Positions 6,133 to 15,073 of a stretch of 64,000 nt of DNA are shown here, one piece after another (the stretch's first letter is position 1; every line of letters begins with the position of its first letter). The stretch comes from Bacilli bacterium (lineage in GTDB: Bacteria > Bacillota_I > Bacilli_A > RFN20 > CAG-826), in contig JAFSUM010000023.1 of assembly GCA_017445245.1 (NCBI GenBank), forward strand, positions 6,115 through 70,114. The letters run 5' to 3'. Both the position numbers and the translations under genes were made by a program. Under the pieces are notes generated by a model. The model worked only from the letters and a program-made list of their open reading frames with translations. It did no database searches and was not told the origin of the DNA.

Positions 6133-6175
6133 AAACGACTTGGAATCCTTGCAGAAACCAAGTCGTTTTCTTTTT
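6133..6175. terminator. Bidirectional hairpin terminator between convergent pepO and the sensor-kinase gene
   Basis: An 11-bp stem, AAACGACTTGG (6133-6143) pairing with CCAAGTCGTTT (6158-6168). It is flanked by an A-run on one side and a T-run on the other. Confidence 0.65.
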
Positions 6176-7433
6176 AACCTTCCGTGATTATCGGGGTTCT
6201 ATTGAAAGGATTCCCTTCGCTTCGTTCTGGTGCGAAACGAATCTCGATCATCGTTCCGCCTTCGTTGGAATCGATGCTCATATGCCCGTTTTCAAGAAGA
6301 GAAACGCGCTTCATGACGTTGCTTAAACCGATGCCACGGCTATTGGAAGGAAGAGGCTGTCCTTCACCGTTATCCGAGACTTGGATCAAAGCGATGCCAT
6401 ACTCCTCGCGTTCGCGGATGCGGATGGTTCCATCTTCCTGATGGACGATGCCAGAATGCTGCAACGAGTTCTCGACTAGGGGCTCTAGTAGCATCGGCGG
6501 AACGGGCAACGAGCCATCTTCCACGTCCAAGGAAAGTTTGATGTTATAGCCGCTGTCGACGTTATGAAGGGCGATTAAGGATTGGATGATTTGAATCTCT
6601 TCCGATAATGGAATAAACGGCGTATCGATGGTCTTGTAGATGCGTTTTTCTAGTTCGCGCAATTCGCCTAAAAGCTCCGTTCCTTTTTCGTTCGATTCGT
6701 GATAAGCCACGCGAACATTATTCAGCGCGTTCAAAAGGAAGTGTGGTTGAATCTCTTCCTTCAACGCTTTCTCTTCGATGCGGGAGAGCACCATTTCCTT
6801 CTGGGCCAATTCGACATTGGTCTTTTTGACCTCCCACAAGGAATGGATGAGGCTATAGCCTAAACCAACCAGCAAGGAAACAATCGAGTAGACGTTGGCA
6901 AACGAGATACCGCCTTTCCCAGGCAAGAAGCCACAGGCCGCGTTAAAGAAGGCTAATCCGATGGAAAGATAGATGGAGAAGGTCCTCGAATCTTTCGAGA
7001 TGAAAGCAAACACGAAACCTGTTAAAGCCAAAATGGCGTAGGCGACAAAGCGTACCGATGGAATAAAGGCCATGACGAAGGCAATCAAGAAGATGACCAA
7101 TGACGTGATGGTTTTGGGTTTATTGTCGCCATTAAATAAGGCCAAAGCACCCATCAAAATCCATAACGGACCGATGGCTTGTTCACTCCAAAGGGTGGGG
7201 TCAAAGAATAGAAACAAAGCCAAAATGATACCGATAACGCCATGATAAGCGTTCTTTAGAGGCGGAATACCAAAGGACAGGGCGCTAGAAAGAAGGCAGG
7301 TAAGGGCCCCAAGACCAATCAGGAAATAGAAGACGGTCGAAGCCCATAAGCGCGGAACGAAATAGAGTAAGAGGAAACATGCCGCGATGGAGATTAGAAG
7401 CGGAATAAGACGAGTAAGACGGCGCTTCATCAT
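6174..7433 (-). CDS. Membrane sensor histidine kinase, LytS/YesM type (PF06580-like His_kinase plus HATPase_c)
   Basis: About 6 N-terminal TM helices, H-box IQPHFLLNALNNV, N-box PMLLEPLVENSLQHSG and G-box SDNGEG/GIGLSNV. Its start ATG overlaps the upstream stop as ATGA. Confidence 0.85.
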   Translation of the reverse strand: MMKRRLTRLIPLLISIAACFLLLYFVPRLWASTVFYFLIGLGALTCLLSSALSFGIPPLKNAYHGVIGIILALFLFFDPTLWSEQAIGPLWILMGALALFNGDNKPKTITSLVIFLIAFVMAFIPSVRFVAYAILALTGFVFAFISKDSRTFSIYLSIGLAFFNAACGFLPGKGGISFANVYSIVSLLVGLGYSLIHSLWEVKKTNVELAQKEMVLSRIEEKALKEEIQPHFLLNALNNVRVAYHESNEKGTELLGELRELEKRIYKTIDTPFIPLSEEIQIIQSLIALHNVDSGYNIKLSLDVEDGSLPVPPMLLEPLVENSLQHSGIVHQEDGTIRIREREEYGIALIQVSDNGEGQPLPSNSRGIGLSNVMKRVSLLENGHMSIDSNEGGTMIEIRFAPERSEGNPFNRTPIITEG

Positions 7434-9232
7434 TGTCTTTCCCTCCTTCGAATCTCAATTCTGCCCGGCGTATGTTTCACATAAAGCGAGACCAACGAAA
7501 TACGTTCTTGCAAGGCCCGCATGACCTTTGGATTCACTTTCATTCGCTTAGGGAAGGAGAGAAGCACGCTATTGCGGGTCTCCCCGAGAATCAGAATCTC
7601 GCCTTCTCTTAATTGTTTCGAGAGGTCTTCAATAAGCGTTTCGAAAAGAAGAGGCGGGACCTTTTTCTCACTTTCTTCGACGTCGAGAACCAAGGCACCA
7701 TAGCCGCCTTGGACAGCTTGCCGCAAATCGAAGAGCTGGCCTTCGAGTTCGCATTCTTCTTCGAAACGGATCGCGTCTTCGCGTAAGGCTAAAAGGCGTC
7801 TTCTTGTAATGCGAGAATATGTCAATAGACGCTTATCGCCAATGCGAAGAGACTTGCCATATCCATCCTCGATATAGTCTAGCGTAGCGACTGCGTCCGA
7901 GGCATTAGATGCCCGGGATAAAGCGCGGCTAGAAACCTGATGGTAACGGCGGGTAAGAATGGCTTCGTCTTTTTGCCTTAAGGAATCAAAATAGATTTCG
8001 TGGAAGGCAGAGGCTAACGCGACAAGACAAGTGATAAGAGATAAGGCCGCAGGATAAGCAGAATAGGAAACGAAAGTATGGTTTGATAAGGCAAAACTTA
8101 GATTCATGGCGATGCTGCCTAAGCTCGCATATAAGACCGAAGGCTTAGCTCCACCGCTTCCCCTAGCGAAGTGAACCAAGTGACGGAACAATAGGTAGAT
8201 CGGCACCGACCCAAGCACCGTAAAGCAATAGACCGCGGCATCCGAACCTAACGTCGCGAAGCAAGCAATCGTGGAGATGGCCAAAAGGAATAACGTAATG
8301 ATACGTTCCGGGAAAAAGAGGACCTTTTTGCGAGTTAATCGCTCATAAAGCAATACAGACAGGATCATGATGACAAAGGACAATATCAGCAGCATCGTGA
8401 AGACTTTGCCACCGTAAAATAGCCCTGCCCCGACAAAGGGAGAGTCAATAGAGAATACGAGGAAGAGAAGACTTCCACCCGCAAGCATACCAAGCGCAAC
8501 CATGACGACTCTCTTTAAGGAGAGCCAGACACCCAAGACGGTAAAGATCAAAACACCAATAATCACGCCTAACGAAATCAGGGCGAATGGTAACGTTGAA
8601 ATACCGGTAATAAGTGACTCTTCAAAATAGATCGTGCCAATCTTCTTTGCACCCCCATCGCCCGTATTCCCGACTTCCATAACATACTCAACGATGCCAG
8701 AGGCAGGCACGACATAAGGGTTCGCAACTTCATGGGATAAATCGACGAACGTGGATTGGAATGCCTTGCTTGGATAACCGATTTCGGAACATAGAGTTCC
8801 ATTAAGATATACGCGGTTGGGAATCTCGATAACAGGATAGACATGGATGGTCTCTCCAGGTGTCAATCCATGAATGAGATAACGGTAGCTTGCATAGCCT
8901 GTAGAAGCATAGCCTTCGCCTTTTCCCGTCCAGTAGCCTGGGGTAGGCAAATAAACCGTTTCTTCCGGCACTTCTAGAGCAGGTTCAGAGTAAAGCCACT
9001 GATTGTAGTAAAACTCGACATCGCCATGGATATACTTGGCAACTTTCCCTAGATTATGTTTGTTGCTCGCGTCCACCGCCCCGTGGTCCACTTGGACGAC
9101 CTGGTCCTGCGAGACGAGGTTCTGGACGATGTAGACGGTAAAAGGAACGAGGAAAACAGCCAAGGCCAATATAATGCCGAAAACACGCCGGTTTCGGCGT
9201 GTTTGGGTCTTTTTCGGGGTTTCTAAGGCCAA
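7430..9232 (-). CDS. 7TMR-DISM-type membrane receptor with a degenerate LytS-like kinase domain (pseudo-kinase)
   Basis: TTG start at 9232 lies 8 nt after AGGAGG. Signal anchor, extracellular 7TMR-DISMED2-like domain (YWTGKGEGYASTGYASYRY, RVYLNGTL) and 7 TM helices. The C-terminal VPPLLFETLIEDLSKQL resembles an N-box but lacks the Asn. I could not find an H-box. Confidence 0.65.
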   Translation of the reverse strand: MALETPKKTQTRRNRRVFGIILALAVFLVPFTVYIVQNLVSQDQVVQVDHGAVDASNKHNLGKVAKYIHGDVEFYYNQWLYSEPALEVPEETVYLPTPGYWTGKGEGYASTGYASYRYLIHGLTPGETIHVYPVIEIPNRVYLNGTLCSEIGYPSKAFQSTFVDLSHEVANPYVVPASGIVEYVMEVGNTGDGGAKKIGTIYFEESLITGISTLPFALISLGVIIGVLIFTVLGVWLSLKRVVMVALGMLAGGSLLFLVFSIDSPFVGAGLFYGGKVFTMLLILSFVIMILSVLLYERLTRKKVLFFPERIITLFLLAISTIACFATLGSDAAVYCFTVLGSVPIYLLFRHLVHFARGSGGAKPSVLYASLGSIAMNLSFALSNHTFVSYSAYPAALSLITCLVALASAFHEIYFDSLRQKDEAILTRRYHQVSSRALSRASNASDAVATLDYIEDGYGKSLRIGDKRLLTYSRITRRRLLALREDAIRFEEECELEGQLFDLRQAVQGGYGALVLDVEESEKKVPPLLFETLIEDLSKQLREGEILILGETRNSVLLSFPKRMKVNPKVMRALQERISLVSLYVKHTPGRIEIRRRERQ

Positions 9233-9248: not shown

Positions 9249-12200
9249 TTAGGCCTTCTTCTTTTTGATGGAGAGCGATTTCATCGTATCGTCGATGAGA
9301 CGGAACGCCTGCTTATAGGATTTGTCGGAGATGACTTTGATATAAGCGGGAAGATCTTTGTATTTCTTCGAACCAGTGTCGTCGTTGACCATCATCTTCG
9401 TGCCAGCGTAGACCTTGGGGTCAATCGCGGTATTGAGACGGAGGTGGACGCCACCGATCGAGATGGCGGCAACGGTCTTCTTGCCAACGCGGTATGCATC
9501 ATAGCCGAAGGAGACGCGGTGCGCGCAGCCATAGGTATCGATGAGATATTTGGAGAGGCCGTCGTATTTTTCTTTGATATCCTTGCCGGAAGCTTCGACC
9601 TTTTCTTCGAAGGAAACGGTATGGATGGAATGGAGGGAGTCGTCGCTGGTGCCAGGACCGAAGGCAGCGAGTTCGCGGGTCGGATCAAGGCGTTCCGTGT
9701 TGCGCGGACGGGAGATGATCGGACGCTTTGGAGCAGGCGCGGGTTCTTCAACCTTCTTCGCCACGATTACTTCTTGCTTCGGCTCGGGTTTGGGTTCGGG
9801 CTTTGGTGCCGGTTTGGGAGCTGGCTTAGGCGCAGGTTTCGGGGCGACCTTCTTCACGGGTTTTGGCGCAGGCTGCGGAGCGGGTGCCTTACCCTCATAG
9901 AGGACGTGCTGCACGCCATCGATTTCCATGATGACGGTCTGGTCCTCGGTGATTTCAAGGTTAATCGGATCCGGTTTTGGCATATCTTCTTCCTCCTCTT
10001 CACAGGGTTCAGTAATGATTTCAGGCTCAGGGAGTCCTTTTTCAACGAGATGTTTGGCGGCAAGACGGGCAGAATCGACGCGGTTTTTGGCGTCTTGAAT
10101 CGCCGCTTCCTCTTCGAGGATTTTGCGCTTTTCCGCTTCGAGGCGTTCTTCCTCGGCTTTGCGAATAGCTTCTTGCTTGAGGCGTTCCTCATCGTGGAGG
10201 AGTTCCTGCTGATAGTCTTCTTCGGTAATGCCTTCGACGAGAACGTCATTATAGAGTTCGGGCACGCGGATAGGCGTAGGCGTATTCATGAAGCCGCCGC
10301 TGGAACCGAGCATCGTCGGGTTCGGGTTGAATTTGACGAAACGATGGAGTTCGCTGGCTTCGACGATGTCCTTGTCATAAGTGTCTTCGACCTTATCGAT
10401 AAAGGAGAAGCCCGCATTGTGAAGGACTTTGATCGCGGCGAGGTTAAAGTCGCCAGACTGGGCCCAGACGAGGTCGAGGTGGAGGGCGTTGAAGGCGTGA
10501 TCGACCATGCCGACCATCGCTTCGGTCGCATATCCCCTGCCCCAATAATCGGGTCCGATGAAGACTTCGATCTTGCGGTGGGAGAAACGGCGGTAGCCAT
10601 CTAGCATCTTTTCTTCTAGCCCAATGACACCGATAAGGGCGTTATCTTCCTGACGGATGATCGCGCGGTAATCGCGGTTCATGAAGCGGTCGAGAAGAAG
10701 CTGGCAGGCATCCAGATCAAGCGGATGGCGTTCGCCCATCATTTCAAGCGGGCCACTCTTCTTGGTGATTTCGAATAGAGCGTTCAAATCGTCGCCATCA
10801 AAGGTACGGAGCAACAGGCGTTCCGTCTCGACTTCTGCGGTCGTACGGAGGACGTTGAGGATGAGGGTTTCCTTTTTGGAGTCGGAACCCGTGGGCGAAT
10901 GTAGACGCTTCACCCAGATCATCTCGTTGCGGAACTCGTCGCTGCCAATTTCGACGAAAGCATAGACCGAGTCGCAGTTGGGGCAATAGAAGTTGCCGTC
11001 TTCGTTCTCGCCATCCATATACGCACCGCAAATGGGGCAGATACGGGAATACGTCCACGCGTCGCCACGCAGGAACGTAAGGCAAGAACGAACCATATTC
11101 TCGAGGTTTGCGTCGATTTTGGAGATATTCGGGTTCGCGATAACCGCGCCGCGTTCAGAAACGAGAGGTTCGGCGGTGAGGACGAACGCGTTTTCATAAT
11201 CCTGCTCGGGGGTCATGCGGTGGAAGACCAAATGATTGATTTCCGTGTCCAAATCATCGACCGTCGGAATCTGGTCGGTAAGGCCTGGCATGAAGTCGAG
11301 GCAAACGCGGCTACGGCGCTTTCTCGAACCGGTGGGCAGATGTACCAAACGAGTATCGGAAACGGTATAGATAATCGATACCTGGGTCGCCGAATCGCGT
11401 TTGAATTCAGCTTTAAGAGGTCCGCGCGTCGCCGTGATCGCATCGACGTTTATATAGCCGTTCGCGTTCAAAGGAATGAAATCGGAGCTAAGTTTGAATC
11501 CGAGTTTTTTATAGACCTCGAACAAACGCTCCAAAGCCCAGTTGCAATAGCCGGACTGGATGAGTTCGTCTTTCTTATGCTGCTCTGTCGAATAGTTAAG
11601 CAACTTCATGTAGAACTGGAAGCAAGCCGCATAGTTACGGTCGCCAATCAACATGTTGGTCGCGTGGATATCCGAATCGCTTAAGGCCTTCGCTTTCTTT
11701 ACTTCTTTATAGAAAGGAGTCGAAACCGAGTGGGAAAGGATACGCTGCGCATCGAGCAACTTACGGAGAGTTGCGATAATCGGGTCATCCTTGTCGGTCA
11801 ATAGTTCCGACGCGTTCATGATCGGATTGAGGGCATCGGGCGTTTCTTTCTGCAAGAAAGAGAGGTCGAGTGGGTCAATCTTAGCATCCGCGACGTAACG
11901 GGAAAGGAACTTCGGCTGGCTATAGAGTTCGGCAAGGCTATGCGAGATGAAGGAACGCATCTTGTCGATAAGCGCGACGACAAAGCGGTTCTCGTAAATG
12001 GCATAGTCCGTTTCCGAGGTATCGCTATAGATGTATTCGGGCAACATGCGGTTGTCCTTTTCTTTCCAGAATCTAGGAACCTTGAGGGTCATGATGACGT
12101 CATCGTTAGCGATACGGACCGCCTTTTCGGCCTGTTTGACTTCCTTATATACCTTAAGATGAGTACGGGGCTTCGAGACGATCGCCATGATGTTCTCGGT

Positions 12201-12389
12201 TACGGCGGTGAACTCGGGGATCCAAGGATAGGATTTGGATTCGTCGTAGGTCGAGGCCGTGGCAGCAGGCGCGGAGAAAGCACCGACGCGCTCGTCGATC
12301 GGCGTGTTCAAAGAGACAGTGCCTCTTTGCTCCAAGCCGCCTTGGTAGGCGTGGATGAACTCCGGTAATGTGATGGTATCTTTCGCCAT
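9249..12389 (-). CDS. Multidomain protein: McrC/DUF2357-like N-terminus, Zn-ribbon, GNAT (RimJ/RimL-like), coiled coil, PAPKP repeats and a conserved C-terminal domain
   Basis: DYAIYENRFVVALIDKM resembles the DUF2357/McrC N-region. Also present: CPICG..x..CPNCDS ribbon, GNAT core IEVFIGPDYWGRGYATEAMV, an EEERLEAEKRK coil and (PAPKP)n. It sits directly downstream of a McrB-like gene. Confidence 0.55.
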   Translation of the reverse strand: MAKDTITLPEFIHAYQGGLEQRGTVSLNTPIDERVGAFSAPAATASTYDESKSYPWIPEFTAVTENIMAIVSKPRTHLKVYKEVKQAEKAVRIANDDVIMTLKVPRFWKEKDNRMLPEYIYSDTSETDYAIYENRFVVALIDKMRSFISHSLAELYSQPKFLSRYVADAKIDPLDLSFLQKETPDALNPIMNASELLTDKDDPIIATLRKLLDAQRILSHSVSTPFYKEVKKAKALSDSDIHATNMLIGDRNYAACFQFYMKLLNYSTEQHKKDELIQSGYCNWALERLFEVYKKLGFKLSSDFIPLNANGYINVDAITATRGPLKAEFKRDSATQVSIIYTVSDTRLVHLPTGSRKRRSRVCLDFMPGLTDQIPTVDDLDTEINHLVFHRMTPEQDYENAFVLTAEPLVSERGAVIANPNISKIDANLENMVRSCLTFLRGDAWTYSRICPICGAYMDGENEDGNFYCPNCDSVYAFVEIGSDEFRNEMIWVKRLHSPTGSDSKKETLILNVLRTTAEVETERLLLRTFDGDDLNALFEITKKSGPLEMMGERHPLDLDACQLLLDRFMNRDYRAIIRQEDNALIGVIGLEEKMLDGYRRFSHRKIEVFIGPDYWGRGYATEAMVGMVDHAFNALHLDLVWAQSGDFNLAAIKVLHNAGFSFIDKVEDTYDKDIVEASELHRFVKFNPNPTMLGSSGGFMNTPTPIRVPELYNDVLVEGITEEDYQQELLHDEERLKQEAIRKAEEERLEAEKRKILEEEAAIQDAKNRVDSARLAAKHLVEKGLPEPEIITEPCEEEEEDMPKPDPINLEITEDQTVIMEIDGVQHVLYEGKAPAPQPAPKPVKKVAPKPAPKPAPKPAPKPEPKPEPKQEVIVAKKVEEPAPAPKRPIISRPRNTERLDPTRELAAFGPGTSDDSLHSIHTVSFEEKVEASGKDIKEKYDGLSKYLIDTYGCAHRVSFGYDAYRVGKKTVAAISIGGVHLRLNTAIDPKVYAGTKMMVNDDTGSKKYKDLPAYIKVISDKSYKQAFRLIDDTMKSLSIKKKKA

Positions 12390-12415: not shown

Positions 12416-14812
12416 TTAGGAGAGTTTGCGGTTATATTTCTCGATGAGGGCCTCGGAGAGTTTGAGGGTGCCTTTGCCGTAATATTGCTGCAGATAACGG
12501 CTCAATTTGACGAGGCCGTTCTTGACGAAGGACTCAAAGTGGCCGTCTAACTTACGGAGAATCTTACGGGCGAGCATGAGGTCGAGAGCCGCCTCTTTGG
12601 TACCGCCCAAAGCGACGAAGACCGGCACGAAGCGATCGATCTGGTTCATGATACGGTTACCAAACGCGAGGTCGAAGGTCTCGCCGATGAACATGGTGAG
12701 TTTCATGAACTTGGTACGCTCGGCTTCGGTGAGTTGGTTTTCCTTGTGGGCCATGGCCTCGTTGATGCAGGTGGTGAGTTCCTCCATCGTCAAAGGATAG
12801 GGGCTGTAATCCCAGTCGGAAGTGAACGGAAGGTTCAAGTCGTTGAACTCGATGACGATCGCACGGTCATAAACCTTATCGGTAATGGTGAAGGTCGAGT
12901 CGTCAGTGTTCGCGGTACCGATGAACCAGGTGTTGGTCGGAATACGGACTTTGCCGTTTTCGATGAATCTCGGAACGGGGGTGCCGAGTTTGACCTGCAT
13001 CAAAGGAATGAGCCAGTCCTCGGGTGGATATTCGAAGATGGAGAGGAAGTCGGCGAAATAGTACTCGATACGGGAGATGTTCATTTCGTCGAGGACCATG
13101 ATGTTCATCTGATCGGGGAAGTAGGCCGCTTCATAGAGGTGCTTAAGGAGTTCGGTTTCCTTGAACTCGCCGGTGAAGTCGGAATAGTAACCGACGATAT
13201 CGGAACGGTCACGCCAAGTGGCTTGAACCGGGAAGAAGAAGGCTTTTCCGCCGATGTATTCGAGGAAGACACGCGGCAAGGTCGATTTACCGGTACCGGA
13301 AAGGCCTTGGAGGATGAGTAGACGCGAGGAGCTGAAACCAGCGATCCAAGCGCGGATGGTATCGATGGGGAAGTAATACTTCTGGTGGCAGAGATAGGAC
13401 TGGAAGCGATAGGCCAACGTCTTGAAGTCCTTGTAGGTCATGGTGACGTGGTTCTTCTTGGCTTCCTCGAAGCGCTTACGGTCTTCTTCACCCAAAGCGT
13501 TCTGAACGGCGGTGCCGATGACCGCGGTGTTCTTCTTGGGCTCTTCGGGATTCTCTTCGAGGTTGGCTTCTTCTTCAGCCTTACGGGCAGCTTCTTCTTC
13601 AGCGAGGCGCTTTTCTTCTTCAATGCGCGCCTCCTCGTCGAGAAGGATCTGAGGCTTTTCAGGCGTCGGGGCACCTTCACGAAGAGCTTTGCCACAGGCT
13701 TCTTCGTATTCAGCCTTGGCCTTAGCTAGTTCTTCTTCATGAGCCTTACGGTCGGCTTCTTCCTGTTTCTTACGCTCTTCTTCGGCGTAGATCTCGTCCC
13801 ATTTATGGTCGATGACGGTCAAAGCGGGGAAGAGATCGCCGGAACGATCTTCGTCTTTACGGCGCTGACCACCGACCAATTGATTCATGCCCTGAATCTT
13901 ATTGGGGTCGACGTTGACTTGGAGATTGGAGAAGTCAACGCGACTAAGGGCGTCTTGGCCAAGGAGAGCATAGTCACCAGGCAGGGAGAGACCTGCGTCG
14001 CGGCGACGTTCGGCCGCAGCGGCTTCAGCAGCGGCTTTGAAGTCCTGATAGTCGCCCGTGGTCATCATGGTCTTGGCAACGGACTGGGCAAAGCCAGCGA
14101 GCAAACGTACCAAGGCACGCAGGATGAGTATGATCAAGATGAGGGCGAGCAAGACGCCGACGAGCATCGCGAGAACGATGCCGGTGGCCATCAAGACGTT
14201 GAGGAAGACCGGACCTTGAGTCTTGGCGAGGTCTTCGCTGGTGAGCTGTTTGATTAAGTTGGTCCACGGGAAGAGAACCGCTGAGACGGTCATACCAATA
14301 AGGATGATGACAATCCAGGTGATCCACCACTTAACGTTGAAGCGAATCTTCCAGTCGGAATCGACGGGTTTGCCTTTCGCAAGGCGCTTATTGTAACGGC
14401 GGATATAAACCGGTTTGCGCGTCGAGATGGCAAATAACAAGGGGACGCCGATAAGGGTCGCGATGCCAAACAAGGCCCACGATGTCATGTAGACGTCGAA
14501 TTGCTTGATGCCGAAGAACTCGAAGAAGGAGCGAACGGCGGGCAAATCCAGCCACTGCGGACGGATCGAGTTACTGACGTCGATGAAAAGCATCGCCAGC
14601 AAGATGACGAGCCAAATAATGGTGATCGTAAGGCTAATGGTAAAAGGTGAATTGTACCAAGCCTTTTTCTTAACTTTGTTCTTGCGAGATTTTTGGGCTT
14701 CCTTATCCAGGTCGCCCTTTCCTTCAATGGTCTCGCTCTCAGCGGGTGCTTGTTCCTCTGCAGGTTGTTCCAAAGCCAGCGTCTCTTCGTTCGACGGGTT
14801 TTCACTAGCCAT
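12416..14812 (-). CDS. Membrane-anchored McrB-like AAA+ (AAA_5) NTPase with a long charged coiled-coil linker
   Basis: About 4 TM helices lie in the first 250 aa, followed by an E/K/A-rich linker. Walker A GLSGTGKS, VLDEMNISRIEYYFADFLS (compare McrB DEINRA) and FIGTANTDDST..DRAIVIEF (compare McrB MNTADRS) are present. Confidence 0.7.
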   Translation of the reverse strand: MASENPSNEETLALEQPAEEQAPAESETIEGKGDLDKEAQKSRKNKVKKKAWYNSPFTISLTITIIWLVILLAMLFIDVSNSIRPQWLDLPAVRSFFEFFGIKQFDVYMTSWALFGIATLIGVPLLFAISTRKPVYIRRYNKRLAKGKPVDSDWKIRFNVKWWITWIVIILIGMTVSAVLFPWTNLIKQLTSEDLAKTQGPVFLNVLMATGIVLAMLVGVLLALILIILILRALVRLLAGFAQSVAKTMMTTGDYQDFKAAAEAAAAERRRDAGLSLPGDYALLGQDALSRVDFSNLQVNVDPNKIQGMNQLVGGQRRKDEDRSGDLFPALTVIDHKWDEIYAEEERKKQEEADRKAHEEELAKAKAEYEEACGKALREGAPTPEKPQILLDEEARIEEEKRLAEEEAARKAEEEANLEENPEEPKKNTAVIGTAVQNALGEEDRKRFEEAKKNHVTMTYKDFKTLAYRFQSYLCHQKYYFPIDTIRAWIAGFSSSRLLILQGLSGTGKSTLPRVFLEYIGGKAFFFPVQATWRDRSDIVGYYSDFTGEFKETELLKHLYEAAYFPDQMNIMVLDEMNISRIEYYFADFLSIFEYPPEDWLIPLMQVKLGTPVPRFIENGKVRIPTNTWFIGTANTDDSTFTITDKVYDRAIVIEFNDLNLPFTSDWDYSPYPLTMEELTTCINEAMAHKENQLTEAERTKFMKLTMFIGETFDLAFGNRIMNQIDRFVPVFVALGGTKEAALDLMLARKILRKLDGHFESFVKNGLVKLSRYLQQYYGKGTLKLSEALIEKYNRKLS

Positions 14813-15032: not shown

Positions 15033-15057
15033 AAAAAGCCTCGGGATTGCCGAGGCT
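15033..15057 (-). terminator. Rho-independent terminator of the surface-protein gene
   Basis: AGCCTCGG-GATTG-CCGAGGCT, with a T-run on the minus strand (A-run at 15033-15037). Confidence 0.7.
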
Positions 15058-15073
15058 TATGAAGGTTTATCGA

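Follow-up and report, generated by a model that had tools for sequence, protein, structure and literature searches.

A McrBC-type gene pair with an inactivated nuclease fold and a fused GNAT domain in an uncultured Bacilli bacterium

A 64,000-nucleotide stretch of a Bacilli bacterium genome (GenBank assembly GCA_017445245.1, contig JAFSUM010000023.1, positions 6,115 to 70,114 of the forward strand; hereafter the window) encodes a McrB-type GTPase, P0002, followed by a McrC-like protein, P0001, which carries a GNAT domain. With moderate confidence, we propose as the joint best explanation of these two proteins a two-protein machine derived from McrBC that has ceased to cut DNA. Judging from its residues and domains, DNA cleavage is unlikely to be the output of this machine, which may instead work by acetylation. 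McrBC is the textbook GTP-driven restriction machine, in which the N-domain of McrC plugs into the McrB ring and stimulates it. To our knowledge, no member of the nuclease-less McrBC branch has been studied experimentally.

Results

P0001 is a multidomain McrC-like protein

An earlier note on this DNA, drawn up from the letters alone, had described P0001 as a McrC-like protein with a degenerate nuclease core and a GNAT domain instead. The protein is ordered as a DUF2357/McrC N-domain, an endonuclease-like fold, a zinc ribbon, a GNAT domain, a coiled coil, a Pro/Lys linker and a domain of about 115 amino acids (aa), with the following window positions, strands and support (pLDDT, predicted local distance difference test).

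9249-12389, (-): P0001, 1046-aa McrC-like/GNAT fusion (open reading frame, translation, 17 homologue clusters)
11559-12389, (-): DUF2357-type McrC N-domain, residues 1-277 (Pfam, AlphaFold2 model, invariant columns, fold matches)
11067-11558, (-): predicted endonuclease-like fold without catalytic residues, residues 278-441 (model topology, conservation, no PF04411)
10890-11054, (-): zinc ribbon, residues 446-500, with C451-P-I-C454 and C469-P-N-C472 (Cys conservation, weak Pfam match)
10320-10832, (-): GNAT, Acetyltransf_3 (RimJ/RimL/SpeG-like), residues 520-690 (Pfam, alignment, Foldseek)
10041-10223, (-): long single helix, probably a coiled coil, residues 723-783 (AlphaFold2 helix 723-783; Glu/Lys/Ala-rich)
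9723-9893, (-): Pro/Lys-rich flexible linker of (PAPKP)n type, residues 833-889 (sequence; pLDDT below 50)
9270-9617, (-): recurrent domain of about 115 aa, residues 925-1040, alpha-alpha-beta4-beta-alpha (pLDDT 80-90)

Homologues of P0001 form 17 clusters (39-99% identity), all of which carry GNAT and keep the architecture, so the open reading frame is neither a chance frame nor an assembly chimera; on these comparative grounds the fusion is genuine and under selection. A Pfam scan gave matches to DUF2357, Acetyltransf_3 and, weakly, zinc ribbons and no match to PDDEXK_7/DUF524 (PF04411), an NCBIfam scan added nothing specific, and no nuclease family scores in either database. All strings quoted in the earlier note are found in the translation (RVCLDFMPGL at 361-370, ENAFVLTAEPL at 399-409 and WGRGYATEA at 616-624), as are its CxxC ribbon (CPIC at 451, CPNC at 469), its PAPKP spacer (833-889) and its C-terminal domain (~925-1040). 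The linker is partly encoded by a tandem array with a 24-bp period (9776-9846, 3 copies, 72% matches) and varies in length between P0001 homologues, which suggests slippage-driven length variation.

The N-terminal module of P0001 resembles McrC

DUF2357 (PF09823) scores 31.3 bits on P0001 against a cut-off of 23.3, in a partial match (positions 94-188 of 251 of the hidden Markov model, HMM) that recurs in relatives. Using residues 1-512 as a profile, we searched 1.84 billion representative proteins and found relatives in 552 representative clusters, mostly proteins of 450-520 aa that comprise the whole module through the zinc ribbon and lack GNAT. Across a wide-family alignment of 23 such relatives (A3), no variation occurs at W108, Y132-E133-N134, T244, Y253, W492 and three of the four ribbon Cys, and N245, C469 and the remainder of the CPxCG motif are nearly invariant.

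An AlphaFold2 model of the N-module built on this 23-sequence alignment (mean pLDDT 76.9) shows residues 1-270 as a helical bundle with a long beta-hairpin, followed by the endonuclease-like domain (278-441) and the zinc ribbon. When this model was searched against the PDB with Foldseek, the B. subtilis YdjA-YdiS model 9a5m_A ranked first (E 3e-4), and McrC structures ranked second (6hz4_M, E 4e-3, probability 0.89), fourth (6ut7_G) and fifth (6ut6_G). The McrC matches, from E. coli and T. gammatolerans, span 433-463 alignment columns with TM-scores of just 0.16-0.25, values that may reflect differing domain orientations. Other weak fold matches included Cdn1, Cap4 and the R2 retrotransposon protein, which we take to be proteins with PD-(D/E)xK nuclease domains.

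Alignment with McrC, which the earlier note had proposed as a check, gave weak matches at the level of fold and none at the level of sequence profiles compared with hhalign. Searched against PDB sequences, the A3 profile matched zinc ribbons only. Since hhalign gave no usable alignment to E. coli McrC, residues could not be mapped by sequence, and we therefore relied on predicted topology and family conservation. Each line of evidence for a McrC-like N-terminus is modest alone, but the DUF2357 match, the McrC fold matches and the position directly downstream of a McrB homologue combine into a sound assignment, as the earlier note had it.

Loss of the nuclease site is shared by a large family

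A restriction-endonuclease fold has its catalytic Asp where the second core strand begins and its (D/E)xK motif in the third strand. AlphaFold2 predicts an alpha-beta3-alpha-beta2-alpha topology for residues 278-441 of P0001, where pLDDT is mostly about 90. The first candidate site lies in strand 359-367 (RSRVCLDFM), where D365 is invariant in the close family and is followed by Phe-Met, with no Lys. The second, proposed by the earlier note, reads E399-N-A and likewise has no Lys; 12 of 14 close homologues retain D397 and E399. Within the 23-sequence wide family, these strands hold no conserved acidic column and no conserved Lys or other basic column; column 365 reads K5/D3/T3/I2. Among the folded parts of the protein, the nuclease fold shows the least conservation, with 35% identity in the far group vs 55% for DUF2357 and the ribbon. 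Based on these conservation patterns, the PD-(D/E)xK core is inactivated throughout a large family. The earlier description of a degenerate core is borne out and extends well beyond P0001, and the Asp thought to be retained is invariant among close relatives but unconserved in the wide family. A search for PF04411 proteins in 121 genomes of the order found none, a result that is uninformative given that control genomes gave none either.

All four Cys of the adjoining zinc ribbon are invariant among close P0001 homologues, the ribbon contains no His, and the PDB ribbons that the A3 profile matches are of L37Ae/eL43 type. A structural or nucleic-acid-binding function may persist in the dead fold and the ribbon, by analogy with the proposal of Bell et al. 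(eLife 2024, PMC11090510) for CnuC.

The GNAT domain is conserved and was inserted late

PF13302 matches P0001 over nearly its full length (72.8 bits against a cut-off of 25.4, 6e-20; residues 524-661 to HMM positions 1-137 of 138). The domain aligns end to end with SpeG and PA3944, the SpeG alignment running from beta1 to N-x-x-A...GF, and in a whole-protein Foldseek search against the PDB all 50 matches listed were GNATs, a result that does not inform on the other P0001 domains. W616, G617, G619, Y620, A624 and N649 are invariant among P0001 homologues. Both the acetyl-CoA loop (W616-G-R-G-Y-A621) and N649...G660-F661 are invariant in 14 homologues, and SpeG has the same motifs. About 40 GNAT columns do not vary between homologues that share 39-84% identity, and identity of the domain within the clade is 43-70%, higher than for the dead nuclease fold. 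A complete RimJ/RimL-type GNAT, as first described, is thus supported by the full-length Pfam match, the conserved motifs and the structural search, and the conservation suggests that it is apparently a working acetyltransferase domain.

The idea that GNAT stands in place of the nuclease does not hold up, as the dead fold and ribbon are common to a far larger GNAT-less family. Pfam scans of ten longer relatives and of seven long McrC-like proteins from related genomes detected no enzymatic domain, only DUF2357 and one weak zinc ribbon. Because the GNAT-less relatives share the dead fold, we infer that the nuclease was lost first and that GNAT and the coiled coil were inserted later in one small clade. 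On this sequence comparison, GNAT is a late insertion and not a nuclease swap; the clade that carries it is small and consists of uncultured gut or rumen Bacilli.

Elsewhere in the same genome, the nearest paralogue of the fused GNAT is a stand-alone RimJ/RimL-type GNAT (contig C35, 70880-71554 (-), 225-aa open frame, E 3e-17).

P0002 is a membrane-anchored McrB-type GTPase in a four-gene unit

P0001 starts 26 nt after P0002 on the same strand, and two further genes follow closely. Features of P0002 and the downstream genes, with their support, are as follows.

12416-14812, (-): P0002, 798-aa McrB-type GTPase partner (PDB match, motifs, PADLOC)
14123-14638, (-): four transmembrane helices of P0002, residues 59-230 (hydrophobic helices)
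13403-13810, (-): Glu/Lys/Ala-rich segment of P0002, ~65% E/K/A/R/Q/L, probably a coiled coil (composition only)
12419-13381, (-): McrB-type GTPase domain of P0002 with GLSGTGKST, VLDEMN and N-T-D-D (E. coli McrB best PDB match, 1.2e-5)
7430-9232, (-): 600-aa polytopic membrane protein (16 nt after P0001; AGGAGG site)
6174-7433, (-): LytS-type histidine kinase (Pfam His_kinase and HATPase_c; 4-nt overlap with the membrane-protein gene)

The Walker A, Walker B and Asn-Asp motifs of P0002 align with those of E. coli McrB, and motifs and transmembrane helices are kept in ten homologues (37-76% identity). Four transmembrane helices are present in P0002 and nine homologues, with one in each of two paralogues from the same genome. 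Strictly conserved among P0002 homologues, N-[TIKN]-D-D can be read as NxD plus an Asp or, when aligned to E. coli, as NxxD. PADLOC model PDC-M26A matches P0002 at 4.5e-43, along with two paralogous McrB-like genes of the genome; PDC-M26B matches nothing in the genome at E <= 1.

The P0002 gene has a GAGGAGG ribosome-binding site, and 220 bp of intergenic DNA separate it from the surface-protein gene before it. Just past the end of that gene, still upstream of P0002, comes a terminator-like hairpin (15036-15058). The two downstream genes look like LytS-type sensor genes, and the four genes together look like one tightly packed operon. Neither downstream gene has a nuclease domain detectable by Pfam and, apart from the sensor kinase, GNAT is the sole recognisable enzyme of the four-gene unit.

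Another hairpin (9181-9204 (+)), with a perfect 10-bp stem (AAACACGCCG-GTTT-CGGCGTGTTT) followed by a T-run, lies antisense within the first 50 nt of the 600-aa membrane-protein gene.

The closest described relatives are nuclease-inactivated McrBC systems

Bell, Sahakyan, Makarova, Wolf and Koonin (eLife 2024, PMC11090510) described a large McrBC branch without nuclease, presumably acting via other effectors. In their NxD branch, McrB homologues carry long coiled coils, McrC homologues have a lost or inactivated nuclease and CPxC ribbons, and two-component genes are frequent. Its nuclease-less CnuC is always accompanied by a HEPN, CnuH helicase or other nuclease gene, and a membrane-linked subgroup, CoCoPALM, was deferred to later work (PMC11090510). 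The coiled-coil nuclease-inactivated NxD branch (CoCoNuT type II and CoCoPALM) is the closest described relative of the locus reported here.

Like CoCoNuT type II CnuB, P0002 joins a McrB-type GTPase to a long charged, probably coiled-coil segment, and its signature can be read as NxD followed by a second Asp. Like type II CnuC, P0001 combines DUF2357, a PD-(D/E)xK fold that is inactivated and a zinc ribbon carrying two CPxC motifs, and two-component genes lie nearby, as is frequent in the NxD branch. P0002 differs from CoCoNuT type II in its four transmembrane helices, and P0001 in its GNAT and recurrent C-terminal domain. No HEPN, CnuH/CnuE or other nuclease stands beside P0001, whose neighbours are the membrane protein, the LytS-type kinase and a surface protein; lacking an adjacent HEPN or other nuclease, the locus is not a CoCoNuT.

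CoCoPALM shares with the pair a membrane-anchored, coiled-coil-fused McrB-type GTPase and coiled coils in both partners, which are probable ones in P0001 and P0002. Its GTPases, however, have an FtsB-like single transmembrane helix and a linkage to signal peptidase and pilus assembly, whereas P0002 has four helices. The sole Peptidase_S26 match of the genome lies on contig C34, away from all three McrBC-like loci, and Peptidase_S24 has no match in the genome. With no linked signal peptidase genes and no single FtsB-like helix, we rejected membership in CoCoPALM.

The pair shares the gene order McrB then McrC with canonical McrBC (EcoKMcrBC and T. gammatolerans; 6HZ4, 6UT6, 6UT7), as well as the Walker A/B and Asn-Asp motifs of McrB and, weakly recovered by Foldseek, the McrC N-domain and two-domain fold. 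It departs from canonical McrBC in that P0002 has no DNA-reader domain and P0001 has no catalytic D...(D/E)xK and adds the zinc ribbon, GNAT, coiled coil, linker and C-terminal domain. With the PADLOC candidate system PDC-M26 it has the A component, P0002, in common; the B component is absent from the genome, and P0001 matches no model. As for RimJ/RimL/SpeG/PA3944-type GNATs, among which SpeG and PA3944 are the best matches, P0001 has the full-length core and the acetyl-CoA loop; it differs in that its GNAT is embedded in a 1046-aa McrC-like protein. The words 'GNAT' and 'acetyltransferase' are absent from the text of Bell et al. 2024 (PMC11090510) and from two supplement files, and literature searches for a link between McrBC and GNAT found nothing relevant.

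Discussion

We consider GNAT, the only enzyme here besides the kinase, the best candidate for an output in this clade, and acetylation a plausible but unproven one. In P0002, four transmembrane helices and a charged, probably coiled-coil segment take the place of the usual N-terminal DNA reader. In the mechanism we envisage, the GTPase ring would sit at the membrane with P0001 bound, and the McrC N-domain would couple P0001 to the ring as in McrBC. The C-terminal domain, on its flexible Pro/Lys linker, would recruit a ligand or partner, and GNAT would use acetyl-CoA to acetylate a target in the cytoplasm, possibly a translation component. This guess at the target draws on the chemistry of the RimJ/RimL/MccE family and on the RNA-directed reading of the CoCoNuT branch. 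The role would most likely lie in conflict, defence or a stress response, wired to the two downstream LytS-type sensors. Only tentatively do we suggest the specific version in which a membrane-anchored McrB-type GTPase ring controls the fused acetyltransferase, responds to a signal from the envelope or through the C-terminal domain, and acetylates a cytoplasmic target, which may be, for example, an aminoacyl-tRNA, a ribosomal protein or a phage protein.

Several results weigh against a McrBC-derived acetylating defence machine. The N-module fold matches are numerically weak (E 3e-4 to 0.1, TM-scores 0.11-0.25), and hhalign of the A3 profile against E. coli McrC gave no meaningful alignment. 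PADLOC has no significant match for P0001 or ten relatives. At the position that we take to hold the general-acid Tyr of SpeG, P0001 has an invariant Leu (Leu656), so GNAT catalysis, if any, must use other residues; absence of this Tyr is common in the RimJ/RimL-type subfamily. Since most relatives have no GNAT, it is not a general effector of the family. The divergence of the pair tracks that of housekeeping genes, which fits a vertical cellular function as well as defence, and no mobile-element genes (integrase or transposase) were found near the pair.

These last two points bear on a non-immune alternative, the main rival and one that we regard as less likely, namely a vertically inherited membrane GTPase machine for envelope or signalling functions, in which GNAT would modify an endogenous protein or precursor under the LytS-type sensors. 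Relative to the genome of orthologous locus L001, the McrB-like protein is 78% identical, the McrC-GNAT protein 63%, GatA/GatB 77%/81% and the membrane protein/kinase 36%/40%. Relative to that of L004, in which the four-gene block is not present, the values are 57%, 45% and 71%/69% for the McrB-like protein, the McrC-GNAT protein and GatA/GatB. We had considered recent horizontal transfer of the pair and rejected it, the divergence being about like that of GatA/GatB. Further in favour of a cellular function, the pair occupies the same place on both of these metagenomic contigs, between gatCAB/DUF1836/epimerase and capsule-type sugar genes, the window neighbourhood contains surface-protein and glycosyltransferase genes, and the GTPase domain is 94-100% identical among P0002 orthologues.

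The distribution of the fusion argues the other way. No GNAT-fusion orthologue was found in 36 other species of the same genus, which yielded distant paralogues only (E 1e-10 to 1e-21), and a search of one genome per GTDB species turned up only four such loci. Of 61 related genomes, 42 carry nuclease-less McrC-like genes (1-4 matches each); these divergent paralogues have shuffled C-terminal modules, a pattern typical of conflict systems. The sole signal peptidase lies on C34, so a CoCoPALM-type surface operon is absent in this genome.

The four-gene block is intact here and present in L001 and L006. The gatAB genes of the P0001 genome are on another contig (C29), which places the locus away from gatCAB; as the block is kept in L001 and L006 all the same, we argue for a functional link among the four genes. 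The membrane protein and the kinase are just 35-45% identical in L001 and L006 vs 63-78% for the pair, and they therefore evolve much faster.

We think it improbable that GNAT is a pseudo-enzyme that only binds acetyl-CoA/CoA or a peptide, with the output coming from membrane perturbation by the four transmembrane helices of P0002 or from other proteins. In its favour, by far the most relatives lack GNAT, which means that the core machine must act through some other output, and every P0002 homologue tested retains transmembrane helices. The two closest GNAT-less loci, from an Erysipelotrichaceae and a Bacilli metagenome-assembled genome (L007, 5955-7424; L008, 6930-8387), encode a protein of ~485 aa with 7-8 Sel1 repeats directly after the McrC-like gene, where P0001 has its fused GNAT and C-terminal domain; what they add is thus a repeat protein and not an enzyme. 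The Leu at the presumed SpeG Tyr position would also fit a binding-only domain. Set against this, the acetyl-CoA loop and N-x-x-A...GF are invariant, GNAT is better conserved than the dead fold, and not all Acetyltransf_3 enzymes use the SpeG Tyr.

A cryptic nuclease, using either a non-canonical site made of D365 with D397/E399 or the zinc ribbon, is very improbable: these residues are well kept among close homologues, but neither candidate (D/E)xK position has a Lys or other basic residue, D365, D397 and E399 are unconserved in the wider family sharing the fold, the ribbon has no His, and no nuclease family is matched in Pfam or NCBIfam.

The locus is an unusually clean case, with a membrane-anchored motor, a predicted dead nuclease fold and a conserved GNAT fused to a McrC homologue. 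If GNAT is indeed the output, acetylation would join the effector chemistries of McrBC-type systems and open this unstudied family to direct biochemistry. Also worth following is the large GNAT-less family that combines DUF2357, the dead fold and the zinc ribbon.

A recurrent C-terminal domain and paralogous loci

We searched the C-terminal domain of P0001 as a profile of residues 920-1046. Many GNAT-less McrC-like relatives have 1-3 copies of it, and one has four in tandem, a 1320-aa McrC-like protein from a genome of the same genus (locus L029, 1702-5664 (-), on contig C60 of genome G011). A 1085-aa paralogue in the P0001 genome has three copies. The domain also ends two polytopic membrane proteins of this genome (contig C31, 37807-40101 (-), 765 aa; contig C17, 83152-84309 (+), 386 aa), in both cases behind long acidic (EP)n or Pro-rich linkers, which makes it a tethered module outside McrC-like proteins as well. 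The transmembrane domains of these two proteins have no homology to that of P0002. In Clostridia, the domain is found as stand-alone proteins of 120-230 aa. Being tethered and repeated, it would be a binding or recruitment module.

The domain searched alone, as the earlier note had advised, has no Pfam model: neither 14 members nor, subsequently, 10 stand-alone homologues gave a Pfam match, PDB sequences gave none either, and an EAD9 match of a single member (E 0.17) was treated as noise. In a whole-protein fold search of BFVD, a phage DUF5655 protein ranked second, among GNATs (E 6e-5), with the aligned query region not reported. PF18899 (DUF5655) has no sequence match to the C-terminal domain and none in the genome, and a DUF5655-like fold is possibly a lead and only that. 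A domain of ~115 aa without a Pfam model, in 1-4 copies and tethered to both McrC-like and membrane proteins, is worth following.

The genome contains two further McrBC-like loci (contig C28, 13060-14481, equivalent to L016 6058-7479; contig C35, 39871-43125, equivalent to L017 4869-8120). Both encode, in order, proteins of ~300/388 aa and 350/356 aa, a McrB-like protein of 503/510 aa with one transmembrane helix, a McrC-like protein of 473/1083 aa and a protein of 269/392 aa, and both operons finish with an EAL (cyclic di-GMP phosphodiesterase-type) gene of 474/514 aa.

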